This document shows, piece after piece, positions 1,213 to 14,321 of a stretch of DNA of 31,496 nt. Source of the DNA: Deinococcales bacterium (GTDB taxonomy: Bacteria > Deinococcota > Deinococci > Deinococcales > JAAFIG01). Position 1 is the first letter of the stretch, and each line of letters starts with the position of its first letter. The translations under genes were made by a program, and so were the position numbers. The notes beneath the pieces were generated by a model. That model was not told where the DNA came from. It did no database searches and saw only the letters and a program-made list of their open reading frames with translations. The stretch covers positions 1 through 31,496 of the forward strand of contig JAYWGM010000035.1 in the NCBI GenBank assembly GCA_043778225.1, in the 5' to 3' direction.

Positions 1213-3012
1213 CTATTCTTTGGGGGTTTCTTTTCTCGAGAAACGCTGCAAAAACCCTTGTGCCAATTTGCCCATTCGTACTCGGAGTGGCTCAGCCGTT
1301 GGCTCGGGCTGGGCTTCGGGGGCGGGTGTTTCCTCGAGTGGCTGACCTGTCAAACGGGCATAGGAGCGGCGGTCTGCCATGACCACCAATTCATCCAGAG
1401 CTTCGAGGCTGGTGCTGCCACGTGGCACACGGACATGACCTTGGCGCAAAATTGCCACCAAAAGTGTGTCTTGCCAATCCAAATCGCGCACCATTTGGTC
1501 ACGCCATGCCTCTGGAACTGGTAAACGGTACAAGCGTTCATCGTCAGTATCCGAAACAATCAGGGCATCGCGCTCGAGTAAATCAAGTAAATCTGGGGTG
1601 TCGCGCAAACCCGTGGCGCGTTTTAAGTATTCGTTGATATGGACTGGGCTGCTCGAGCGCGATTCGGCTTGGGCGGGCAAAATGCTTTCGCGCCCAGTCA
1701 GGGCATAACCCGCCAGCGTGGTCAGTAAAAGTGGGGTCAGCAAGCCATAACCGCTCCATTCGGTGATTAAAAGCGTCGCCGCAAGGGGTGCGTTGACCGC
1801 CCCAGCCAAAAAAGCCGCCATGCCAGCCAACGTAAAAGCGGCAGGTTCGATCGGATAACTTGGAAAAATCGCGTTTAAGCCTTGGGCATATAAATTGCCG
1901 ATTAACCCACCAAGCACCAGACTTGGCGTGATTAAACCACCCGTCACGCCACTCGAGCCAGCCAGCAGCACAATTCCAGAGCGCAGAATCAGCAATGCCA
2001 AGACCGTACCAAGCGGTAAAAAATTAGATAAGGATAACTGCATCCAGCCTAAGCCATCACCGAGGGCATAGGGTGTAAAAATTGCCAGAACGCCAATCAG
2101 ACCACCAGCCAAGACCAGTCGCAACCACGGCGGGATTTTACTTAGACTCCAGCCTAGGCGCAGTCCACGCAAAGCCAGCACAAAGCCAGCCGCCGCCAGT
2201 GCCTCGAGTAAACCCAGCACAAAAAAAGCAGGCAGCAATGCCGCCGGCTGCCCGCTCAGTTGCGGCAATTCAAACAAAGGCTCAAAACCACGAAATAAAC
2301 CAAAAACCGCAAACGCCACGACACTCGAGAACACCGCCGGCATCAGGGCTTCGATTTCAAATTCAAAACGGCGGTATAACATTTCGACCGCCAAAACCGC
2401 CGCCGCCAGTGGCGCTCGTAAAGCCAAGCCAAGCATGGCGGCTAAAGTTGCCACAAACATCAAACGGCGGTCTTCGTCGGATAACCTCGAGAGCCGTGCA
2501 AAAACTGGCGAGAGCAGCATCGCTAAACTGGCAAAAACTCCTTCGCGCCCGATTGGCGCACCAACAATCACGGCTAAGCCACCTTGCAATACCTCGAGAC
2601 TGGTGCGGCGTGGGTCGGCATTGGCGGCGGTTTGATGAAATGCCTGCAAAGCCGCATTGACCCCATCGGACTCGAGTGGCACAGTATTTTTTTTGTACCA
2701 AAAAGCGATGCTCGAAAACCCGAAAATCATTAAAATTGGCAGTAAAGGCGCAACTGGAATATCCAGCAGCCCAAATAAAGAAATCGTCTCTTGTGGCGCA
2801 TAGGCTTGTAAAACCCCACCTTCATTGGGTAAGCCCGGTGGGCGCAAACCGGTTAAACCCGTCAAAAAAAATTCTTGTAAAAACTCGAGCAGCAGCGCCA
2901 AAAGTGTTCCAGCCATGCCGACCAATAAGCCAGTGCCAATGCTGTACAAAACAATCCGACCGGTCTCGAGTCGAGCGCCAAAAAAAGGCAATGCGCGGCG
3001 GGTCGGTTGCAT
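1213..3012 (-). CDS. ClC-family chloride channel/H+ antiporter with C-terminal TrkA-C (RCK_C)-like domain
   Basis: Many TM helices with GREG, APLAAAVLAVEM, GGLITPSL and GMAAFLAGAVNAPL. The C-terminal ILRQGHVRVPRGSTSLEALDELVV is TrkA-C-like. Start moved to ATG 3012 (TACGCT -10 7 nt upstream). Confidence 0.88.
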   Translation of the reverse strand: MQPTRRALPFFGARLETGRIVLYSIGTGLLVGMAGTLLALLLEFLQEFFLTGLTGLRPPGLPNEGGVLQAYAPQETISLFGLLDIPVAPLLPILMIFGFSSIAFWYKKNTVPLESDGVNAALQAFHQTAANADPRRTSLEVLQGGLAVIVGAPIGREGVFASLAMLLSPVFARLSRLSDEDRRLMFVATLAAMLGLALRAPLAAAVLAVEMLYRRFEFEIEALMPAVFSSVVAFAVFGLFRGFEPLFELPQLSGQPAALLPAFFVLGLLEALAAAGFVLALRGLRLGWSLSKIPPWLRLVLAGGLIGVLAIFTPYALGDGLGWMQLSLSNFLPLGTVLALLILRSGIVLLAGSSGVTGGLITPSLVLGGLIGNLYAQGLNAIFPSYPIEPAAFTLAGMAAFLAGAVNAPLAATLLITEWSGYGLLTPLLLTTLAGYALTGRESILPAQAESRSSSPVHINEYLKRATGLRDTPDLLDLLERDALIVSDTDDERLYRLPVPEAWRDQMVRDLDWQDTLLVAILRQGHVRVPRGSTSLEALDELVVMADRRSYARLTGQPLEETPAPEAQPEPTAEPLRVRMGKLAQGFLQRFSRKETPKE

Positions 3013-3052
3013 GGGACTAAGCGTATCATTGTTTACTGGCGCTTTGACCCAA

Positions 3053-3140
3053 CCCATGCGACGCTGGTGCGGATTCCCATGCGACGCTGGTGCAGATTCC
3101 CACGCGACGCTGGTGCAGATTCCCATGCGACGCTGGTGCG
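3053..3140. repeat. Tandem 23-bp direct repeat, about 3.8 copies (CCCAYGCGACGCTGGTGCRGATT)
   Basis: Units start at 3053, 3076, 3099 and 3122 (last one partial), with no spacers, in the divergent intergenic region. Confidence 0.95.
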
Positions 3141-3159
3141 ACGCACAGTTTGTTATCTT
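3126..3159 (+). promoter_or_regulatory. Putative activator box (TGCGACGC x2, 11-bp period) plus extended -10 for the S8 protease
   Basis: TGCGACGC at 3126-3133 and 3137-3144, then TG-t-TATCTT at 3151-3159. Confidence 0.45.
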
Positions 3160-3283
3160 GAGGCTCGAGAGTTTGGGGCTTGTCTCACGCTTATCTAGCC
3201 TACCTAAGGTTAGAGTAGGTTTGAGATTCAATTTCTCGGTTCGGTATTTTTGGCATCCGCCTTCTTTAACAGGAGAAACAACC

Positions 3284-5008
3284 ATGCAGAAAAAACGTTT
3301 TGTGGCTCAACTTTCTATGCTGTCCGTACTGACCATGGCACTTATCGCTTGTGGTGGTGGCAACGGTTCAATTTCGGGTACAGTTAGCCCCGGAGCAACC
3401 AAACCCTCGAGTGCCGAGTCCTTTGTGGCTGGCGAAGTGATTGTTAAATTCCGCAGTAAAATCCAAGCCACCAGTGCGGTGACTTTGCAGGCTGGCGGTT
3501 TACAACTGGCTCGAGTTCGCAATCTGGGTTTGGCACGCACCAGCTTGTACCGCAGCCAAGCCAACCACGCCAAAACGCTCGAGTTGGTCAAACAACTGAG
3601 CAGCCGTAGCGATGTTGAATACGCCGAAGTCAACGGCATTAACTATGCCATGGCTGTACCAACCGACCCACAATACGTTCGTCAGTGGCACTACGAAAAC
3701 ATGAACTTACCCGCCGCATGGGACATCAGCACAGGTGTTGCCAGTACCGTGGTTGCGGTGATAGATGATGGAATGCTCTATAATTTGACCGATACTGACC
3801 CAAAAACCCACCCCGATTTTGCTGGGAAAGTGATTGGCGGTTACGACATGATTAGCGATCCCAATGGGGCTGGCGACGGCGATGGACGCGACGCAAACCC
3901 CTACGATAACCTGATTGGTTTACATGGTACACACGTTGGCGGAACAATTGCTGCTGCTACCAACAACGATAAATTTGGTGCTGGAGTCAACTGGAATGCC
4001 AAACTGATTAACGTGCGTGTTTTGGGCAATGGAGGTGGCACGGTGGCTGATATTGCCGATGGTGTGCTTTGGGCAGCCGGGGAAACAGTGGATGGACTTC
4101 CAGTCAATCCAAACCCCGCTAAAGTGCTGAATTTAAGTCTCGGTGGCGATGGTGCGTGTAGCGCGACCTATCAAACTGCTTTTGATACAGTCACGGCTAA
4201 GGGTGTAATTGCGGTTGTGGCGGCTGGAAACGAAACCGCCAATACCGCCGATAAGAACCCAGCCAATTGCAACAATGTGATTACGGTTGGTGCGACTGGA
4301 CCAACCAATAAACGGGCTGGCTACTCGAATTTTGGCGCTCGAATAGATGTCATGGCACCTGGTGGCGACCTCGAGTTATCGGTCAATCGTGGTGGCGAAG
4401 ATTTCCAAGCTGGTGTTTTTAGCACCTATGCCGATAAAGCCAACGGCAACGCATTTAACCTTGGGTCAATCCAAGGCACAAGCATGGCAACCCCACACAT
4501 GGCTGGTTTGGTTTCTTTGATGGTCGGTATTGACCCAACGCTCAATTACACCAAAACGCTGGCTTTCCTCAAAAACAATGCCACGGCATTAGCTGCCGGT
4601 GACTGCTCCAATGGCAATGCCACAGTCACCGATGCCTTTTGTGGTTCTGGTCTGGTCAATGCTGCCAAAACCCTGAAAGCCGTCAAAGATGCTTTGGGTG
4701 GTCCAGTCACACCACCACCACCTGCCCCACCTGCTCCGCCCGCCGTCAAAACCACCAAGAATTTTGTACGGGCAGTGGACAGCAGCGATGCCAGTAAAGT
4801 CAAGCAAGTCGAAATTAACCTCACCAAAACAGCCGTTGCTTACAGCCTGACCGACCTTGCTCCCGGAACATACAAAGTCACGGCTTACGACGACCTCAAC
4901 GGCAATGCTGCACCCGATGCCAACGAGCCAAAAGTTTCGCTAGATATAACCATTGGGGCTGGCGAAAACAAAGCCAATATCAACTTGACGATGCAGCCAG
5001 ACAGTTAA
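3284..5008 (+). CDS. S8 subtilisin-like serine protease, lipoprotein
   Basis: RBS AGGAG 3271-3275 and ATG 3284. Lipobox LIAC-GGG, prodomain GEVIVKF, triad VIDDG / HGTHVGG / GTSMATP, Pro-rich linker and a C-terminal beta-sandwich-like domain. Confidence 0.93.
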   Translation: MQKKRFVAQLSMLSVLTMALIACGGGNGSISGTVSPGATKPSSAESFVAGEVIVKFRSKIQATSAVTLQAGGLQLARVRNLGLARTSLYRSQANHAKTLELVKQLSSRSDVEYAEVNGINYAMAVPTDPQYVRQWHYENMNLPAAWDISTGVASTVVAVIDDGMLYNLTDTDPKTHPDFAGKVIGGYDMISDPNGAGDGDGRDANPYDNLIGLHGTHVGGTIAAATNNDKFGAGVNWNAKLINVRVLGNGGGTVADIADGVLWAAGETVDGLPVNPNPAKVLNLSLGGDGACSATYQTAFDTVTAKGVIAVVAAGNETANTADKNPANCNNVITVGATGPTNKRAGYSNFGARIDVMAPGGDLELSVNRGGEDFQAGVFSTYADKANGNAFNLGSIQGTSMATPHMAGLVSLMVGIDPTLNYTKTLAFLKNNATALAAGDCSNGNATVTDAFCGSGLVNAAKTLKAVKDALGGPVTPPPPAPPAPPAVKTTKNFVRAVDSSDASKVKQVEINLTKTAVAYSLTDLAPGTYKVTAYDDLNGNAAPDANEPKVSLDITIGAGENKANINLTMQPDS

Positions 5009-5024
5009 AAATACGTGGCTCGAG

Positions 5025-5055
5025 AATCCCCCAAGTGTAATTGGGGGATTTTTTT
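5025..5055 (+). terminator. Intrinsic terminator, possibly bidirectional
   Basis: AATCCCCCAA-GTGTAA-TTGGGGGATT followed by a T-run, between convergent genes. Confidence 0.88.
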
Positions 5056-5292
5056 ATCGGCTGTAATAGGCTCGTCCAACGCCATCAAAAGCGTCCAGAC
5101 TTCATACAGCAATGCTTAAAACGCTTTGCAGCCCCACATGGGCAAGGGTCGTTGCGCCCAAGTTTCTCGAGCAGTTCTTTGTTGCCATGCACCACGCGCT
5201 GACCACGTTTGACTTTTGTTTCGGATGGATACCCTTTGCGGCGTTTACTGATGACCTCAAAAGCAGTCTTGTTCCTCAAGTAGATGCACCAT
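5054..5292 (-). CDS. Small SEC-C Zn-binding motif protein, proposed about 78 aa via two +1 frameshifts
   Basis: SEC-C core [19 protein letters not shown] lies in ORF 5085-5279. The RBS GGAGG (5298-5302) with ATG 5292 is in another frame ending TTT-TGA at 5262-5257, and the core ends TTT-TGA at 5090-5085. The SEC-C domain is secure; the boundaries depend on the frameshift model. Confidence 0.7.
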
Positions 5293-5383
5293 AAAAACCT
5301 CCGTTGGCTCGAAATAACTCGAGCAAGGCAGTTTAATTTTTATCGAGGCTGTTGCCATCCGCCAAATCAATTAGAATGCCTTT

Positions 5384-6676
5384 ATGACCATTCCAGAAAT
5401 CATCGAACAAAAACGCGAAGGCGGCACACACAGCCGCCAAGAACTCGAGCAACTTATCCTAGGTTTTGTGGCTGGCAGTGTGCCAGATTACCAGATTGCG
5501 GCGTGGCTGATGGCGGTTTTTATACGTGGCATGACTGCCCAAGAAACCACTGTCCTGACCCAAGTGATGGCAGCCAGTGGCGAACAACTCGACCTCTCGA
5601 GCTTGCCGCGCACCACCGATAAACACAGCACTGGCGGGGTGGGCGATAAAACCAGTCTGGTCTTGACCCCAATGCTGGCAGCCTGCGGCGTGACGGTCGC
5701 CAAAATGAGCGGGCGCGGTTTAGCACACACGGGTGGCACAATAGATAAACTCGAGAGTATTCCAGGGTGGTCGCCGAATCTCGAGGAAGCCGCTTTTTTG
5801 AAGCAAGCCAAAGAAATTGGTTTGGTGCTGGTTGGGCAGTCAAAAAACCTTGCGCCCGCCGATGGGCTGCTTTATGCGCTGCGTGATGTCACCGCCACCG
5901 TGCCGAGTATTCCTTTAATCGCCTCAAGCATCATGAGTAAAAAACTTGCCAGTGGCGCAAAAACCATTGTGCTGGATGTTAAAGTTGGCGCAGGTGCATT
6001 TATGAAAACCCTACCAGATGCTCGAGCGCTGGCACAGGCGATGCTTGAAATTGGGCGCTTGGCTGGGCGCAACACCCGAGCCATCCTGACCGATATGGAA
6101 ACACCTTTGGGCAGCATGATGGGCAATGCGCTCGAAGTCCAAGAAGCGATTTATACTTTGCAAGGGCATGGCGCAACAGACTTACGAGAATTATGTCTAG
6201 CATTGGCGGAAGAAACACTGCTTGCCGAAGGATTCTCGAGCCAAGATGCCCTTGCCTTGCCGCAAAAAGCCCTCGACTCTGGGGAGGCACTCGAGAAATT
6301 TAGGTTGTTTATTGCGGCTCAAGGCGGCGACCCAAGTTTTGTGACCAACCCAGAAAAATTAACGATTGCGGCAGGGCAGCAAATGATTGTGGCACAAGAA
6401 AGCGGCTATCTCGAGCGCTTGGACGCGCTGGCGGTCGGCAAGGCGGTTCTGGCACTGGGCGGCGGGCGCGAACAAAAGGGCGAAGCCATAGACCACAGTG
6501 TCGGTGTGGAAATTCATGCCAAACCTTCAGATAAAATCCAAGCAGGTGCGCCACTGGCTACGATTTACCACAATCAGCGCGGACTCGAGACCGCCAAAAC
6601 CCTGCTCGAGAATGCTTTTTCGGTCGTGCAACAGCAAGTCAAGGCTGCACCACTAATTCTTGAGCGTCTGGCATAA
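5384..6676 (+). CDS. pdp: Pyrimidine-nucleoside/thymidine phosphorylase
   Basis: [54 protein letters not shown] and [12 protein letters not shown] motifs. Confidence 0.95.
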
Positions 6677-9794: not shown

Positions 9795-9947
9795 ACAGAA
9801 TTTATTTGTTGAATATGCTCTTGACAAAATCAAGTTTTTGTATAAAAATAGTACCACTAACAAACGAGGGTGTCAGCAAGGTGCATTGCTATTTAGAAAT
9901 AACTCAGCCTGCGTTTGCTATAAAAATCGTACCAAAAGGAGAACATC

Positions 9948-10343
9948 ATGTCCACAAAAAATCGTCTCGAGTCCCTTGGTTTCAAACCCAGCGTCGTTGC
10001 CTCCACCAATGTCAGCAATCTCGAGGAGAGTATCAAATGGTACTCGGAAAAACTTGGCTTTGAACTGATTTACAAAGTAGACGAAATTGCTTGGTGCGAA
10101 CTGACCAGCCCTGTACAAGGCGTAACGATTGGTTTATCACAAGTCGAAAGCCCAGAAACCAAAGGCACAGTGCTAACTTGGGAGGTCAGCGATGTTGCCC
10201 ACACCCGAGCCATGCTCGAGCAAGCAGGCGTGAAATTTGCAGGAGAAACCAGCACCATCCCCAACCTTGTTACCCTTGCAAGTTTTTATGACCCAGACGG
10301 CAATACTTATATGCTTTCAGAAACGCTGGCACAGCCTTCATAG
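9948..10343 (+). CDS. VOC/glyoxalase family protein
   Basis: RBS AAGGAG, with VSNLEESIKWYSEKLGF and FYDPDGN motifs. Confidence 0.92.
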   Translation: MSTKNRLESLGFKPSVVASTNVSNLEESIKWYSEKLGFELIYKVDEIAWCELTSPVQGVTIGLSQVESPETKGTVLTWEVSDVAHTRAMLEQAGVKFAGETSTIPNLVTLASFYDPDGNTYMLSETLAQPS

Positions 10344-13300
10344 TTACCAAGCCATTTTCTTCTTAATACCCATGCCTCGCTGACCTCGAGCCGACGTTTT
10401 TGGCAAAGCGCCAGATTGACCTCGAGCGGTTCGCCTTTTTGGACTACGCCAACTAAACTCGAGATAATCAGCTTGGCGGCTGCCAAATCCCCAACTTTTT
10501 CTAGGGCTTGTACCTCGAGCCAATGGTACAATTTGGGAGCATGAAGTCCGCGCCAATAGTTGCTTTCTTGGCGGATAAAAATAGCCTTTTTGGCGTGTTG
10601 GGCTGCCATTTCCCAATCGTTTAAGCCAACACAAGCGGCACACAGATTGGATTCAATATAATTAGCATAACGCTGCTCGTTTTTGAGTAATTCTGGAATA
10701 CGCCCACTTGCCTCGAGCAGTATATTTTTGGCTTCTAAGAAGCGTTTTTGCTCGAGCAGCATGATTGATTGGGCAAATTCAAATTCGATCGCAATACGAG
10801 CGGCGGCTTGGTGTCGTAGGTCAAAGGCTTGTTGGCATAGAGTCAAGGCTTCTTGGGACGCGCCAGTCTCGAGCAAAGGATACGCCAAATAGACGGCTGC
10901 CATACCCGTAAAAATCGGGTTGTCGTCTATTTGCTGCTTAATGCTCAGGGCGCGTCTGGCATCATCAATAGCCGCTTGGTAAAAACCGGTGTTGGTTCGA
11001 CAAAAAGCCAAATTCTCGAGGTAGTAGGCAGTGGTATCGCTGATTGGCTGTAACTCAAAGCGCTCGAGAATATCCTGCCAGTGCTGAGTAGCAATTTGCC
11101 AATCGCCACGAGATTGATAAGCGTCGGCAAGTGTCACCGTTGCCCAACGCTCATGGTCTGGGCTGAGTTTTTTGGCTCGAGTCAACAATTCAAGAATTGG
11201 TTCAACTGGGTAGTTATCGCCAGTCGTCAGGCGCTGATGGCGCAAATTGGACATGGCGGCTTCTATTAAGCCGATTGGATCGTTTAATTCTGTAAAAATC
11301 GCGCTGGCTTGAGCAAATAAATCCTGTATTTTTTCAACTTTGACTTGTGTCCAACTGTAGGTGTTGGCGACAAAAACCAAGGTGTGGGCTTTGAGTTTCA
11401 AATCACCCAGTTCTCGAGCCAATCCCAGCGCTTCTTGGGCTAAGTTGGCAGCCATGGCGGATGGTTCGTTTAAGGTCACATATAAATTTGATAACGAACC
11501 GTACAGGTGTCCGATTTCATCGGTGGTCAAGGTTAAACCAAGCGGCGTGTTGTCGGGGCGTTGGGTCAAAATACGTCTGGCAGCCTCGAGATGAAAAACC
11601 GCATCGCGCCACGCATAAATTCGTTTGGCATCATCGGCTGCCGCCACCGAAAAGCGCACCGCCAAAAGCCACGCCCGAGCCCCATACGCATGACCCGCCC
11701 GTTGGGCGGCACTGCCAGAAACTCGAGTCAATGCCAGTTGTTGCAAAGCCTGTAAGCGTGGCGCACTGAGGCGCTGCAAAGCGGTTTCACGCAGTTTATC
11801 GTGCGAAAAGGTGTATTTGACCAGACCCAATCCAAGCGCGGGTAACTCGAGCAGCACCCGAGCGCGAAGGCATTCCTCGAGTGCCAGCAGCAAATCTGGC
11901 TCGAGGATTTGTGCCACCTTAGCGGCATCGGCAAAGCTAAACCCCTGCCCCAAGACCGCTCCAGCCTCGAGTAAAGTCCGTGCTGCTTTGCTTAAACGGG
12001 CAAACCGAGCCTCGATGACAGTGCGAACCCCGGGGGCGGTCTGTTGGTCGCCAAGTTGGACTGTCCAGCCATCGCGGTTGGCTAACAATGCCCCACTTTC
12101 CGAAAGACTCCGCAGGGTCTCGGCGATGTACAAAGGCTGCCCACTGGTTTCTTGGTACAACCAATCCAAAAGCGCGGCGGGCGGCACACCGACATCCTCG
12201 AGTAAACGCAAGGTTTCATCCCTAGAAAAAGCCTCGAGTGATAATTGCTCAAGCGGCATATCTCGAGCTAAACTGCCCAGCCACGTTTGTAACCCGAGCA
12301 GTGCTTCACTACGAACTGTCACCAGCAGTAAAATTGGAGTTTTCTCGAGCGCGGCGCGGCGCAAGGTAAACAACAAAACCTCGAGCGAAGCCGCATCTGC
12401 CCATTGGGCATCGTCGAGTAACCAAATCAGATGCCCCAACCGAGATGATAACTTGACCACCGCTTCAAAAATCCTCGAGCGCCCAAGCGATTCATCCGAA
12501 ACAGGCAAAGGTAAATTGGCGATGTCCAACAATTCAGGCAGTAACCGCGCCAATTCTGCCAACCAAACAGGCGAAAGCAAGGTCTCGAGGTTGGGTATAC
12601 GGCGCAGCGCATCGGCAATACACTGATACGCCAGTGCCGCTCCTTCAAACGCCCGAGCCGAAAGAACGGTTGCATCTCGAGCCGCTGCCCATGCCAAAAA
12701 CTCTTGCGCCAAACGGGTTTTACCAATGCCTGGTTCGCCCGTCAAAACCACCACACTGGGTGTTTGCTGGGCGCTGCTGTAAAAGGCAGCCACAAGGCGC
12801 TGAAATTCTGAGACCCGTCCAACCAGCCTTGACTCGAGCAGCAAACTTGGCAGACTTGGCATCCGCCCAACCCGTGGCTCGAGTTGCAAGGCATCTGCCA
12901 TTGCCAAGATTTCTGGACTTGGCAAAATCCCTAATTCGGCTTGGATGCGTGCTTTGAATCCTAAAAAAAGCTCAAGCGCCCTTGAGCGCTGTCCAGCTTC
13001 GGCTAAAAAACGTAACAACGCCAAATGCGCCACTTCGGACCATGGCTCGAGCTTCGCCCACTGGAGCAAAACCGCCTCGTTTGGTTCAGCTATCTCGAGG
13101 CTTTTTAGGGCAGCTTCTAAAACCTGTCTGCGGGCTGCCTCGAGCCAATTTTCGGCTTCGGGTGCATCGATTCCATCCAGCAGTTGACCACGATAATTGA
13201 GCGCTGCCTCGAGCGAACCCTGCAACACCAAAAGGGTATCGCAACGAAAATCGGTCAGCCAAACATGATTTCGGTCAGCTTGGAGTGTGCTGCCTAAGCT

Positions 13301-13504
13301 GTAGCGTAAACTCGATAAGGCATTGCGTAAACTGTTTTTGGCTTCTTTTGAATCTGCCCAGAGCAACAATGCCAAACGCTCCCGAGTAACCCGCCCCTCG
13401 AGCGCCAAGATGCACAGCAGGACCAAGGCTTTACGGGTTTTGAGGCGCACCTCGAGACCAGCCAACCTCACCACAGGACTACCTAAAAACATCAACTCGA
13501 GCAT
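10307..13504 (-). CDS. SARP-like wHTH-BTAD + AAA/STAND NTPase + TPR transcriptional regulator
   Basis: N-terminal KALVLL...TRERLALLLW...SLRNALSSLR, BTAD (LEPWSEVAH...ELGILPS), Walker A GEPGIGKT, LLDDAQWAD, TSGQPLYI, FSHDKLRE and a helical repeat C-terminus. Confidence 0.9.
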   Translation of the reverse strand: MLELMFLGSPVVRLAGLEVRLKTRKALVLLCILALEGRVTRERLALLLWADSKEAKNSLRNALSSLRYSLGSTLQADRNHVWLTDFRCDTLLVLQGSLEAALNYRGQLLDGIDAPEAENWLEAARRQVLEAALKSLEIAEPNEAVLLQWAKLEPWSEVAHLALLRFLAEAGQRSRALELFLGFKARIQAELGILPSPEILAMADALQLEPRVGRMPSLPSLLLESRLVGRVSEFQRLVAAFYSSAQQTPSVVVLTGEPGIGKTRLAQEFLAWAAARDATVLSARAFEGAALAYQCIADALRRIPNLETLLSPVWLAELARLLPELLDIANLPLPVSDESLGRSRIFEAVVKLSSRLGHLIWLLDDAQWADAASLEVLLFTLRRAALEKTPILLLVTVRSEALLGLQTWLGSLARDMPLEQLSLEAFSRDETLRLLEDVGVPPAALLDWLYQETSGQPLYIAETLRSLSESGALLANRDGWTVQLGDQQTAPGVRTVIEARFARLSKAARTLLEAGAVLGQGFSFADAAKVAQILEPDLLLALEECLRARVLLELPALGLGLVKYTFSHDKLRETALQRLSAPRLQALQQLALTRVSGSAAQRAGHAYGARAWLLAVRFSVAAADDAKRIYAWRDAVFHLEAARRILTQRPDNTPLGLTLTTDEIGHLYGSLSNLYVTLNEPSAMAANLAQEALGLARELGDLKLKAHTLVFVANTYSWTQVKVEKIQDLFAQASAIFTELNDPIGLIEAAMSNLRHQRLTTGDNYPVEPILELLTRAKKLSPDHERWATVTLADAYQSRGDWQIATQHWQDILERFELQPISDTTAYYLENLAFCRTNTGFYQAAIDDARRALSIKQQIDDNPIFTGMAAVYLAYPLLETGASQEALTLCQQAFDLRHQAAARIAIEFEFAQSIMLLEQKRFLEAKNILLEASGRIPELLKNEQRYANYIESNLCAACVGLNDWEMAAQHAKKAIFIRQESNYWRGLHAPKLYHWLEVQALEKVGDLAAAKLIISSLVGVVQKGEPLEVNLALCQKRRLEVSEAWVLRRKWLGNYEGCASVSESI

Positions 13505-13590
13505 GGCAAATTATACGCAACTCAAAGCACCAAAAAATTTAACGATTGATTTAACGCTTTGTTATTGGTGGCTTTGTACAGTCTGTCTTA

Positions 13591-13636
13591 GCGCTTAACT
13601 CGGTGAACCTCCGTGAGCCGAGTTGAGTGCAGGAGG
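13591..13636 (+). promoter_or_regulatory. 5' leader hairpin abutting the RBS
   Basis: 13-bp stem 13591-13603/13618-13630 with two G-U pairs, CCTCC in the loop and AGGAGG at 13631-13636. Confidence 0.55.
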
Positions 13637-13641
13637 AAATC

Positions 13642-13827
13642 ATGACTGACCTGAATATGTTTCGTGCCGTAGCGCAAAGCCGCCAAATTATCGAAGAAGA
13701 ATTTGTACCACGTTTGCCACCCAGATTGGCTTTAGAAGTGATTGGCACTACGCCAAAAGGGATAAGCGCCACACCATCGAGAGGTGTAAAAATCCGTGAT
13801 ACACCTCGAGTACAGCGTCAGTATTGA
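13642..13827 (+). CDS. Small hypothetical protein (61 aa)
   Basis: Perfect AGGAGG 5 nt before ATG 13642, divergent from the BTAD regulator. No recognised domain. Confidence 0.55.
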   Translation: MTDLNMFRAVAQSRQIIEEEFVPRLPPRLALEVIGTTPKGISATPSRGVKIRDTPRVQRQY

Positions 13828-14321
13828 ACCGTAGGATGAGCCAGTACATGGACAGAAGTGTGTGTGGTATCTCGAGCAATTGGGGCAAGCAGAACTTCTC
13901 GAGGGCTTAAACCAACCGCTGTAGCCTGTTGCTCGAGTTGTCCATAAGCTGCCTCAGACAAGAGTATGCAGCGTTGGGCGGCTGGTGTGATGGGTACAAG
14001 TTCGCCGTTTATTTCTAAACCCATCACCAATTTTGCACCAGTGGTCTGGCAAAGCTGTAGCAACGTCTCGAGGGTGTGGTTATGGTCTATTTTTTCCCAT
14101 TTAGAGACCAGACTTTGACGCACTCCAAGTTCGCTGGCAAGGCTGGTTTGGGTGTGTCCAGAGGCTTCTCGAGCTTGGGTTAGGGCAACAGCGAGGTTAT
14201 ATTTAATTTCTTCTTCAGCAGCAATGGCTCGGTTTTTTGGGGTATCTGGCAGAATACTGTCTAACCACTCGAGGACGTTTAGGGTATTTGCCCCAATGGG
14301 CAAAGTTTTTTTAGGCTTCAT
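13818..14321 (-). CDS. XRE-family HTH protein, HigA-like antitoxin
   Basis: LTQAREASGHTQTSLASELGVRQSLVSKWE...TLETL HTH. Starts 3 nt after the upstream relic ORF stop. Confidence 0.85.
   Translation of the reverse strand: MKPKKTLPIGANTLNVLEWLDSILPDTPKNRAIAAEEEIKYNLAVALTQAREASGHTQTSLASELGVRQSLVSKWEKIDHNHTLETLLQLCQTTGAKLVMGLEINGELVPITPAAQRCILLSEAAYGQLEQQATAVGLSPREVLLAPIARDTTHTSVHVLAHPTVQY

Follow-up and report, generated by a model that had tools for sequence, protein, structure and literature searches.

Anatomy of the gene and its predicted product

The window, i.e. the whole 31,496-nucleotide stretch analysed here, belongs to a Deinococcales metagenome-assembled genome (107 contigs, 89% complete) and carries on its minus strand a small gene flanked by genes for a subtilisin-like protease and a pyrimidine-nucleoside phosphorylase. 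The parts of this gene are collected in Table 1. If each of its two TTTT runs is read as a single Phe step, its three segments join into one 78-aa product that requires exactly two non-standard steps, at F11 and F68, the second segment terminating as ...CCMKSGRF at the second TTT TGA. The first-pass annotation, made from the letters alone, had described the frame opened by the ATG behind a Shine-Dalgarno (SD) sequence, the two TTT TGA breaks and the 78-aa total, and a recheck confirmed each of its statements on the sequence. The hairpin that it placed beyond the stop codon is present, with a folding energy of -17.7 kcal/mol on the minus strand (z -3.3) and -22.2 kcal/mol on the plus strand, and a consensus terminator scan listed no terminator there; since the U-run lies on the plus-strand side, the hairpin would in the first instance be taken for a terminator serving the convergent protease gene.

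Table 1. Features of the frame-broken SEC-C gene in the window (positions counted from the first letter of the window)
Feature	Position	Strand	Description
Shine-Dalgarno GGAGG	5298..5302	-	ends 5 nt ahead of ATG 5292; 18 nt ahead of the called TTG 5279
Segment 1	5260..5292	-	frame 0 from ATG 5292, 11 codons, ends TGC TTT TGA
Shift site 1	5257..5265	-	TGC TTT TGA (TTT 5262-5260, TGA 5259-5257); predicted skipped base T 5259, resuming at GAG 5258-5256
Called TTG	5277..5279	-	start codon that a gene caller would assign to a 64-aa ORF; not taken as the true start
Segment 2	5088..5258	-	+1 frame, 57 codons, ends CGC TTT TGA; carries the SEC-C knuckle
SEC-C zinc-knuckle motif (CPC...CC)	5100..5156	-	Pfam PF02810, residues 42-60 of the 64-aa ORF
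Family site 2 (RF|K)	5115..5120	-	unshifted in this gene, TTT AAG
Shift site 2 of the window (family site 3)	5085..5093	-	CGC TTT TGA (TTT 5090-5088, TGA 5087-5085); predicted skipped base T 5087, resuming at GAT 5086-5084
Segment 3	5054..5086	-	second +1 frame, 10 residues and TAA at 5056-5054
GC-rich 10-bp hairpin	5025..5050		intergenic between convergent genes, beyond the stop; U-run on the plus-strand side

The knuckle of the second segment matches the SEC-C model PF02810 over its entire length (profile positions 1-19 of 19) with 33.8 bits against a gathering cut-off of 20.4 (E 3e-8), which places it alongside the comparable CPC...CC knuckles of the SecA C-terminus, YecA and YchJ. However, the family of the window gene lacks the UPF0149 or YchJ body, and we rejected the YecA and YchJ names found in the source databases, as only the last ~23 model residues match, with 17-34 bits against cut-offs of 120-158 (29-34 against 140-158 for the NCBIfam equivalogs). 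The KRRKG[YF]PSE...VKRG.R.VHG part and the DG..R..YF tail matched no curated family. The identity with ribosomal protein bS21 suggested by the name that one source gives to a member, and by an RFK..C..G...R..Y resemblance, was likewise discarded for want of HMM support: S21 models and PF01165 gave no match at E up to 10 for P0121, P0031, P0042 and other members, and PF01165 was not found in the window's 89% complete genome. An AlphaFold2 model of the natural in-frame homologue P0120, built on a 16-sequence alignment, has a mean pLDDT of 55 and is confident only at the knuckle (residues ~40-60). In a mobile-element check the family matched no phage and, among plasmids, two records of Candidatus Manganitrophus.

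Frame breaks and coding constraint in related loci

A survey of related loci in many phyla, 89 of them genomic and 78 metagenomic (167 in all, in counts that include kin and hence are not independent), showed that their frame breaks fall at the same three positions, almost always right after a TTT Phe codon that is followed by T or C. Every one of the 124 fully scorable loci requires shifting, once in 8 loci, twice in 100 and three times in 16. Outside the three junctions there is just one break (in L003), and one locus has an in-frame TAG (L009). All eight homologues in the window's own family combine TTT TGA at site 1 with one or two further breaks after TTT, and across the +1-class relatives site 1 is TTT_TGA or TTT_CGA in 68/72 genomic and 48/58 metagenomic cases, two of the four genomic exceptions (L057 and L061) being TGC TTT C GAG misplaced by an anchor offset. 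The initial claim that the window gene needs two +1 shifts at UUU_U thus gains support from breaks at the same positions in relatives across phyla. As the hexamer TTTTGA is common in the window, occurring 47 times on the two strands, a motif count is not the evidence; the coincidence of both TTT TGA with junctions that are frame-broken in relatives across phyla is, judged from the aligned loci, above chance.

Site 2, which is in frame in the window gene, has an extra base after TTT (TTT C AAR or TTT T AAR) in 28/89 genomic and 33/75 metagenomic relatives, and here the codon usage separates shifted from unshifted copies: in the genomic set the shifted copies have TTT 27 times and TTC once while the in-frame copies have TTT 9 times and TTC 50 times (Fisher 1e-13), and on fresh metagenomic loci the same test gave TTT/TTC counts of 33/0 for shifted versus 10/31 for in-frame copies (1.7e-12). 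A shifted site 2 comes before the final two Cys ligands of the knuckle, so that the unshifted product of such a locus cannot be a SEC-C motif. Site 3 is shifted in 64/89 genomic and 47/73 metagenomic loci, and 57 and 41 of these shifted copies have a P-site TTT; a minority of the site-3 shifts have P-site codons without re-pairing (CTG, GTA, ACA, CCA, ATT or ATA). Some loci (8 and 10) need a shift of -1 or +2 rather than +1, and one subclade has T7 runs at site 1. The shifts at sites 2 and 3 are negatively associated, with an odds ratio of 0.054 computed from kin counts that are not independent.

In-frame versions of each junction occur naturally, with TTC or TAY. An ATG or GTG supported by an SD and lying in the frame that needs the +1 shift, 8-18 codons upstream of the junction, is found in 60/89 genomic and 48/78 metagenomic loci. 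An SD-supported start in the core frame alone was seen in no genomic and in two metagenomic loci (L221 and L232), both natural fusions (MAHIHEWEESNFEITSKRRKG...) in which TTC or TAC replaces TTT; further in-frame proteins are P0003, P0082 and P0120. Knuckle and tail share one frame in 25 genomic and 26 metagenomic relatives, among them L004 (...QRFDGVLRDYYFRE) and L005 (...GRFDGVQRNHYFRK), and the continuation ..RFDG..R.YY that the first-pass annotation had given for relatives proved correct in both.

The three segments differ in constraint. Segment 2 keeps about 70% amino-acid identity across phyla, and in close pairs the third codon position takes 70% of the substitutions in the core and 60% in the tail, the latter counted in its own shifted frame; a DG..R..Y[FY]-type motif ends 162 of the 164 loci that reach site 3. 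Segment 1, by comparison, gave no sign of amino-acid constraint in the codon-phase test (third-position share 35%, and 36% in same-length pairs; chi-square p 0.49), and its length differs among relatives by whole codons. Conservation at the protein level, for which the first-pass annotation had looked to both outer segments, is therefore seen for segment 3 and not for segment 1, and the N-terminal segment may be only a runway.

These observations bear on another reading of the locus, that it reflects a homopolymer assembly error or a decaying pseudogene. The window does come from a fragmented metagenome-assembled genome, and L003 and L009 have extra defects; yet the same breaks recur in more than 160 independent assemblies, including isolates and closed chromosomes (e.g. 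Massilia pinisoli JCM 31316, Stieleria magnilauensis TBK1r, Pelomonas cellulosilytica P8 and Acidobacteriaceae KBS 96), they are limited to three positions, and the protein is under strong purifying selection. Two independent Logan assemblies, possibly of the source samples themselves, show no difference over the stretch, and both T4 runs persist in a ~90% identical contig of a different study, which has 50 substitutions and a 3-nt insertion in segment 1; this support for the T4 runs comes from assembled contigs. We consequently regard an artefact or local decay as scarcely credible.

Predicted slippage of tRNAPhe on UUU_Y

Based on the conservation of the breaks and of the protein on either side of them, we propose that the window gene is a real, conserved and recoded gene, and that its family is subject to a programmed +1 ribosomal frameshift at UUU_Y; we put the probability of this reading at about 0.8. 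Ribosomes would start at ATG 5292 in a frame that closes after 11 codons, and once tRNAPhe occupies UUU in the P site while UGA stands in the A site, some of them would slip +1 to the overlapping UUU, skipping T 5259, and go on to read the SEC-C zinc-knuckle frame. A second, identical slip at CGC UUU UGA, skipping T 5087, would add the conserved tail and complete the 78-aa protein. Ribosomes that do not slip would release an 11-aa or a 68-aa product, so that the full-length yield would be the product of two slip efficiencies and would be expected to be low and to respond steeply to the speed at which the A-site codon is decoded. Where two or three UUU_Y sites must be passed without a stimulator, this yield could be tiny.

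The proposed slip has precedents. Shifting at UUU_Ynn was reportedly described by Fu and Parker in 1994 (argI) and by Schwartz and Curran in 1997, and a passage of Atkins et al. 2016 (PMC5009743) names UUU_Ynn as a +1 shift-prone tetranucleotide in bacteria. Both window sites have UUU followed by a pyrimidine, a configuration in which tRNAPhe re-pairs in the +1 frame, and TTT occupies the P site in 27/28 genomic and 33/33 metagenomic copies of shifted site 2. Like the UUU_Ynn cases and the Yersinia pestis YopN-TyeA hybrid, these sites would need no strong stimulator, a slow next codon sufficing to raise shifting; however, those cases are errors or a single optional fusion, whereas the window's family has multiple obligatory sites, kept at fixed positions across phyla. 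A further parallel is the influenza A PA-X site, given as UCC_UUU_CGU in an excerpt of PMC3498833. Many relatives (e.g. L045, L048, L058, L064, L073 and L089) have TCC TTT CGA, and in both settings tRNAPhe would slip at UUU_C ahead of a poorly read CGN codon, although PA-X is viral and eukaryotic and makes a minor extra product at a single site, and the window has UGC or CGC_UUU_UGA instead. Candidate stimulators of other kinds found little support in the window: RNA structure does not go beyond shuffled sequences at either site (z -0.33 and -0.07), and a special tRNA was rejected, both tRNAPhe(GAA) genes of the genome having ordinary 7-nt anticodon loops. A further, odd tRNA-like call ('ggtc') on C28 is not a Phe tRNA, and its anticodon stem is weak.

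To our knowledge, obligatory +1 frameshifting in bacterial cellular genes is known essentially from prfB alone. The prfB-type precedent and the perfect re-pairing of tRNAPhe at UUU_U, both invoked in the first-pass annotation, hold, and the genome's own prfB has the frameshift site CTT TGA C. As in prfB, the P-site tRNA of the window gene would slip +1 onto an overlapping codon with UGA waiting in the A site, and the main frame is preceded by a short ORF with a good SD; a slippery NUU_U with an in-frame UGA is present at 5262-5257 and at 5090-5085. The differences are equally clear. Neither of the window sites is preceded at 3 nt by an SD-like element, site 1 having an SD-like GAGGA that ends 10 nt before TTT and family site 3 just a GGA ahead of CGC, and in place of the C that follows the UGA of prfB they have TGA G and TGA T, UGA-U being a strong terminator. 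Unlike the single site of prfB, there are two or three sites per gene in this family, with CGA or CAA in place of the stop in relatives, and, the product being a protein other than RF2, an autoregulatory loop is not evident. A stimulator of the SD type is at best partial and confined to site 2 of relatives, where a GGAGG-type element stands at the prfB spacing of 3 nt in 7/28 shifted copies and the mean duplex energy is -4.9 versus -3.4 kcal/mol in in-frame copies; as a general explanation we rejected it.

The first-pass annotation had gone further and read the gene as a double sensor of RF2, in which both shifts need slow RF2 at UGA and the protein is made only when RF2 is limiting. In favour of this, both sites of the window gene are TTT TGA, as are 9/9 site-1 copies in its family; UGA is read by RF2 only, the genome retains the autoregulatory shift of prfB, and a passage of PMC12421855 reports TTTTTGA in the prfB of 21 genomes as a rare natural UUU_UGA variant. 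The pattern does not extend to the family, where CGA outnumbers TGA at site 1 (45 vs 23 genomic, 32 vs 16 metagenomic) and CAA outnumbers TAA at site 2 (24 vs 3 genomic, 27 vs 2 metagenomic), so that RF2 dependence is not the conserved trait. Site 2 is mostly TTT CAA even in the window's own family, and the want of an SD-like stimulator and of a C after UGA in the window also speaks against RF2 specificity, which we consider unlikely. By the codons found at the junctions, what is conserved is not UGA but UUU_Y with RA after it.

A more conventional alternative is that the middle ORF alone is translated, yielding a SEC-C protein of ~57-64 aa from TTG 5279 or a non-canonical codon to the TGA at 5085, with the upstream ATG frame as a separate leader peptide and the tail untranslated. 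This is what gene callers and databases annotate, with many entries of 52-65 aa; it agrees with the lack of amino-acid constraint in the N-terminal segment, with a Met codon (..E.MSKRRKG) that could be an internal start in about half of the relatives, and with the capacity of a SEC-C motif to terminate directly after CC. Against it, the window's family has I, L, T, A or S where this Met would stand, an SD-supported core-frame start is absent in 60/89 loci, and TTG 5279, for which the first-pass annotation had already seen no SD at a usable distance, lies far from the SD and is not conserved, the aligned codon being a non-start in L002 and L004-L009. Nor would an untranslated tail be expected to be conserved with substitutions concentrated in third positions of its own frame and to be fused in frame in 51 loci, and the CC ligands come after the break wherever site 2 is shifted. 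Furthermore, the CGA-type junctions have no frame-0 stop, so that termination and reinitiation cannot explain entry into the core frame. We hold this reading to be quite improbable. An even smaller chance attaches to correction of the frame at the RNA level, with transcriptional slippage or editing removing one U and the ribosome not responsible. The breaks do lie in or beside T runs, and the subclade with T7 at site 1 has reached the length at which slippage of RNA polymerase becomes possible; however, T4 is far below the known slippage length, most relatives have TTTC, which is no homopolymer, and the single-base excess is identical with T or C.

RNA-repair neighbourhoods and significance

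Examination of gene neighbourhoods revealed that genes for RNA-repair proteins (Hen1/Pnkp, RtcB, RNA ligase, Thg1 and RlaP) lie directly downstream on the same strand in 12/80 genomic loci and in 6/63 fresh metagenomic loci. Full operons that include a family gene comprise Hen1-Pnkp, RNA ligase with an HD-kinase, kinase-Thg1-ligase, and RtcB with a PrfH-like RF-1 domain protein. As the first 15 loci among the 40 nine-kb regions behind this operon survey were picked for known repair genes, only the 80-locus and 63-locus counts are unbiased. The window gene itself has no RNA-repair neighbour; RtcB and an RNA ligase of its genome are encoded on other contigs, and Hen1 was not found in this 89% complete assembly. 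[quoted passage not shown]

Because the gene heads several different RNA-repair operons in other phyla, we tentatively suggest that its product might be a small and basic zinc-knuckle protein with the translation or RNA machinery as its target, and that its synthesis would serve as a readout of slow decoding. RtcR reportedly senses tRNA fragments (Hughes et al. 2020). The relatives at the head of Hen1-Pnkp, RtcB-PrfH-like, RNA-ligase and Thg1 operons invite comparison with RtcR and with PrfH-RtcB2, presented in a passage of PMC9304027 as a ribosome rescue and repair system, in that a gene needing slow A-site decoding could report damage to translation; the window copy differs from these systems in not standing beside repair genes. 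More speculatively still, and with rather long odds, the family as a whole might be a translational damage gauge for RNA repair. The full-length protein would then be made only when decoding of YGA or YAA in the A site is slow, whether from depletion of tRNAArg(ICG), tRNAGln or RF2 or from cutting of tRNAs or the decoding centre by ribotoxins, and two or three UUU_Y slips in series would give a steep response. The protein would bind ribosomes or broken RNA and activate or aid repair by Hen1-Pnkp, RtcB-PrfH, ligase or Thg1, and the predominance of exactly two slips (100/124 loci), together with the negative association of sites 2 and 3 (0.054), would reflect selection for a set-point.

If the proposed +1 shifting at UUU_Y is correct, this would be a second obligatory +1 family, whose genes of about 240 nt contain two or three UUU_Y sites that lack a stimulator and whose conserved range runs from Deinococcales-like bacteria to Planctomycetota, Verrucomicrobiota, Proteobacteria and Acidobacteriota. 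It would provide a compact natural model for the tuning of P-site slippage where neither an SD element nor RNA structure takes part, and would imply that hundreds of database entries for the family are truncated or mis-started. The link to repair operons would, moreover, make the sensing of tRNA and ribosome damage by cells directly testable.

Reading frames of the window gene

The protein encoded in the window is a SEC-C motif protein, with its middle reading frame matching Pfam PF02810 at 33.8 bits against a cut-off of 20.4; profile comparison rejected both membership of the YecA or YchJ families and identity with bS21. The first-pass annotation had described the gene as apparently requiring two +1 shifts, and a codon-by-codon rereading of the gene confirmed the frames, stops and coordinates (see table). 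When each TTTT is taken as a single Phe step, the three segments give a single product of 78 residues, with non-standard steps at F11 and F68 and nowhere else. The gene-caller ORF would begin at a TTG situated 18 nt from the Shine-Dalgarno element. The hexamer TTTTGA occurs 47 times in the window, both strands counted, and being this common its count alone says little. Since the U-run of the hairpin lies on the plus strand, this element looks primarily like a terminator for the convergent protease gene; a consensus terminator scan listed none, this hairpin included. We found no description of a frameshifted SEC-C family in the literature searched, which does not take in Burroughs and Aravind (2016), the principal survey of RNA-repair neighborhoods.

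Coordinates of features in the window and on other contigs of its genome (G000)
Feature	Contig	Position	Strand	Remark
Shine-Dalgarno GGAGG	window	5302-5298	minus	five bases before ATG
Segment 1, ATG GTG CAT CTA CTT GAG GAA CAA GAC TGC TTT TGA	window	5292-5257	minus	frame 0
TTG of gene-caller ORF	window	5279
Segment 2 (core)	window	closes CGC TTT TGA, 5093-5085	minus	one base further than segment 1 frame
Segment 3 (tail)	window	closes at 5054	minus	one more base further
10-bp hairpin	window	5050-5025		3' of gene's stop
Protease ORF	window	2825-5008	plus	convergent neighbour
CTCGAG, examples	window	5019-5024, 5166-5171, 5318-5323, 5444-5449
prfB shift site	C59	~3487-3560	minus	CGG GGG TAT CTT TGA C
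Array of 26 tRNA genes	C19	~9,900-14,200		39.6-kb contig
tRNA-like gene	C28	46067-46151		ARAGORN call, 85 nt
RtcB	C80	47009-49219		matches lie within a 947-codon open frame

Judged by sequence motifs, the long ORF of the convergent neighbour codes for a putative subtilisin-like serine protease; its first ~140 codons appear non-coding, and the real start is probably an internal signal-peptide-like Met (MQKKRF...). The palindrome CTCGAG is highly iterated, occurring 207 times in the 31.5-kb window against 4.15 expected from shuffles, and also fills the loci of same-family relatives, an iteration that we take to resemble the cyanobacterial HIP1.

Recurrence of the broken junctions across the family

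The gene is present in eight of 18 other genomes of the window's family, and all eight copies display a short ATG frame with a strong Shine-Dalgarno element that ends in ...TTT TGA and is followed by the core in the +1 frame. At site 2, within the zinc knuckle (CPCG..RRF / K.CC), seven of the eight have one surplus base after TTT (TTT C AAA, TTT T AAG or TTT T AAA); this site is in frame in the window and in the relative L003. Within the family, only the window's genus has a shift at site 3, the junction of core and tail (GRF|DGV); copies from the other three genera are in frame there, which bears out the earlier suggestion that relatives continue as ..RFDG..R.YY.

Beyond this family, a protein search recovered 471 matches of 35-112 aa, a genome scan at least 597 confirmed loci and a metagenome scan 558 loci. 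Taxa named for them are Planctomycetota, Verrucomicrobiota, Beta- and Gammaproteobacteria, Acidobacteriota, Gemmatimonadales, Bdellovibrionales, MAGs of Cyanobacteria and Melainabacteria, and one Deinococcales MAG, whose locus (L109) equals the g5 sequences of the window's family. Isolates with the gene include Massilia pinisoli JCM 31316, Stieleria magnilauensis TBK1r (on the chromosome), Lysobacter sp. CA196, Pelomonas cellulosilytica P8 and Acidobacteriaceae KBS 96. The core retains ~70% identity across phyla, and several genomes have two to three copies.

Junction status in the genomic set (n=89: the window, eight family relatives and the best 80 of at least 597 genomic loci) and the metagenomic set (n=78: those of the best 80 of 558 metagenomic loci that show the core)
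Junction	Genomic	Metagenomic
Site 1 (segment 1/core)	+1 60; -1/+2 8; ambiguous 15; no SD-supported start 6; core-frame-only start 0	+1 48; -1/+2 10; ambiguous 10; none 5; too near contig end 3; in frame 2
Site 2 (knuckle)	shifted 28; in frame 61	shifted 33; in frame 42; not scorable 3
Site 3 (core/tail)	shifted 64; in frame 25	shifted 47; in frame 26; not scorable 5

Breaks recur at the three junctions across the 89 genomic and 78 metagenomic loci. Among the 124 loci scorable at all three sites (the other 43, undetermined, are left out), none requires zero shifts, eight require one, 100 two and 16 three. A shift at site 2 is negatively associated with one at site 3 (20 loci have both, 41 site 2 alone, 91 site 3 alone and 10 neither; odds ratio 0.054), which could result from selection on slip number or from shared ancestry. 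In a mostly planctomycete subclade (L041, L047, L052, L053, L056, L066, L068, L101, L107, L111, L165-L168, L172, L174, L180, L181 and L223), in which some assemblies are perhaps long-read and homopolymer lengths less certain, site 1 has an additional T (T7, or TTTTC after TTG), which leaves the SD-supported ATG in a frame needing -1 or +2. Were tRNAPhe to slide by +2, from UUU to UUC, the result would be the ..PFFE.. protein of the +1 class.

Two other readings of the broken frames are an assembly error and a decaying gene. The window stretch is identical, with no differences, in two Logan assemblies, which are not independent as they may be the source samples; a ~90% identical contig from another study covers the whole stretch and, with assembled contigs compared, shows indels elsewhere, including a 3-nt insertion within segment 1, and none at either T4 run. 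L003 (G004:C191) is broken a fourth time, within the core (TAT CCT TAG TGA, with one surplus T after CCT), and L009 (G010:C196) has an in-frame TAG in segment 1, so that some copies are perhaps decaying; for these two, misassembly of an incomplete genome is the other possible cause. For the family we consider the frameshift reading well supported by the comparative evidence, at a probability of 0.8.

Probable joining of the segments and a proposed slippage model

Natural fusions were found at every junction: site 1 is fused in L221 and L232 (MAHIHEWEESNFEITSKRRKG..., with TTC or TAC) and in the proteins P0003, P0082 and P0120, and many loci need no shift at site 2 or at site 3. In copies with a shifted site 2, the knuckle's CC ligands come after the break. 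In close pairs read in the proposed frames, third positions take 70% of substitutions in the core and 60% in the tail, and this signal is absent from segment 1 (35%, or 36% in same-length pairs, p 0.49). Protein-level conservation, put forward earlier as a check on segments 1 and 3, is seen in the tail but not in segment 1, the sequence of which seems free to vary; what is kept in that region is the Shine-Dalgarno element, a wrong-frame start 8-18 codons upstream, a loosely acidic composition and a final [CSF]F.

TTT precedes the extra base at shifted site 2 in 27 of 28 genomic and 33 of 33 metagenomic copies, and at shifted site 3 in 57 of 64 and 41 of 47, whereas in-frame copies favor TTC at site 2 (50 TTC versus 9 TTT genomic; 31 versus 10 metagenomic) and TAY at site 3. 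Fisher tests on the site-2 codon give 1e-13 (genomic) and 1.7e-12 (metagenomic), values overstated because kin are not independent. The extra base, T or C, turns the next zero-frame codon into TGA or CGA at site 1 and at site 3, and into CAA or TAA in the case of site 2; the +1 codon following it is GAR, AAR or GAY. Exceptions are CTT TGA, the prfB site, in three genomic loci and one metagenomic locus; CTG C, GTA Y, ACA T, CCA T, ATT T and ATA T at site 3; and a single TTC A at site 2 (Lysobacter, L057). The suggestion of an RF2 sensor suits the window's lineage, where each of the two junctions has TGA, but does not hold for the family, in which CGA is commoner than TGA at site 1 (45 versus 23 genomic, 32 versus 16 metagenomic).

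Atkins et al. (PMC5009743) describe the bacterial tetranucleotide UUU_Ynn as especially +1-prone with no stop codon required, UUU_U as a minority prfB site and UCC_UUU_CGU as the PA-X shift site, and a 2025 survey (PMC12421855) records TTTTTGA in prfB of 21 genomes. The family's sites match the tetranucleotide as described there, and the TCC TTT CGA of many relatives is like the PA-X site. The prfB of the window genome carries a canonical programmed frameshift. A search of that genome for a special tRNAPhe found none, no local RNA structure at the window sites was significant, and an SD-like element at prfB spacing is restricted to seven of the 28 shifted site-2 copies of the genomic set, with neither window site having one; hence we read the events as gated P-site slippage of tRNAPhe. 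Recoding would work like slippage in prfB, at UUU_Y and in PA-X, and the window sites lack two defining prfB features, an SD-like element 3 nt before the slippery codon and a C following UGA. In this model tRNAPhe would slip in the P site with slow A-site decoding as the gate, perhaps at low efficiency.

Among the genes of the tRNA array in the window genome is another tRNAPhe(GAA), whose G37 C38 loop is unusual; PMC8421152 deals with long tRNA arrays and translational stress. The tRNA-like gene has a four-base anticodon, ggtc, and a weak anticodon stem of G-U pairs.

Gene neighborhoods and RNA repair

Among 80 genomic loci (the best of at least 597) with 600-nt flanks, 12 have an RNA-repair-type gene downstream on the same strand: Hen1 in five, RNA ligase, RtcB and an AAA_33 kinase in two each, and in one an ADP-ribosylglycohydrolase with an RNA ligase after it. 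Nine-kb regions reveal whole operons headed by the SEC-C gene, which is followed by Hen1 and Pnkp; by Hen1, a NIF phosphatase and RlaP; by RNA ligase and an HD-kinase; by a kinase, Thg1 and a ligase; or by RtcB and a 209-aa RF-1-domain (PrfH-like) protein. Of the 40 such regions, the first 15 were picked for known repair neighbors, and none of the other 25 has one. Same-strand Thg1, kinase, RNA ligase, RlaP or RtcB genes occur at six of 63 metagenome loci with a downstream ORF, and one further locus has RtcR on the opposite strand. The window copy is flanked by the protease gene and a nucleoside phosphorylase gene; this genome (89% complete) has its RtcB and RNA ligase genes on contigs other than the window's, and a search of it for Hen1 gave no match. 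Its RtcB on C80 matches in three pieces within one open frame about twice the usual length, a possible intein-like insertion. Downstream of a second SEC-C copy in another genome (L120, G076:C4) lie genes for an ApeA-type HEPN protein and a NADAR-domain protein, a defense or conflict-type neighborhood.

The link with RNA repair suggests a possible role at the interface of translation and RNA damage, and offers a testable lead on the function of the family.
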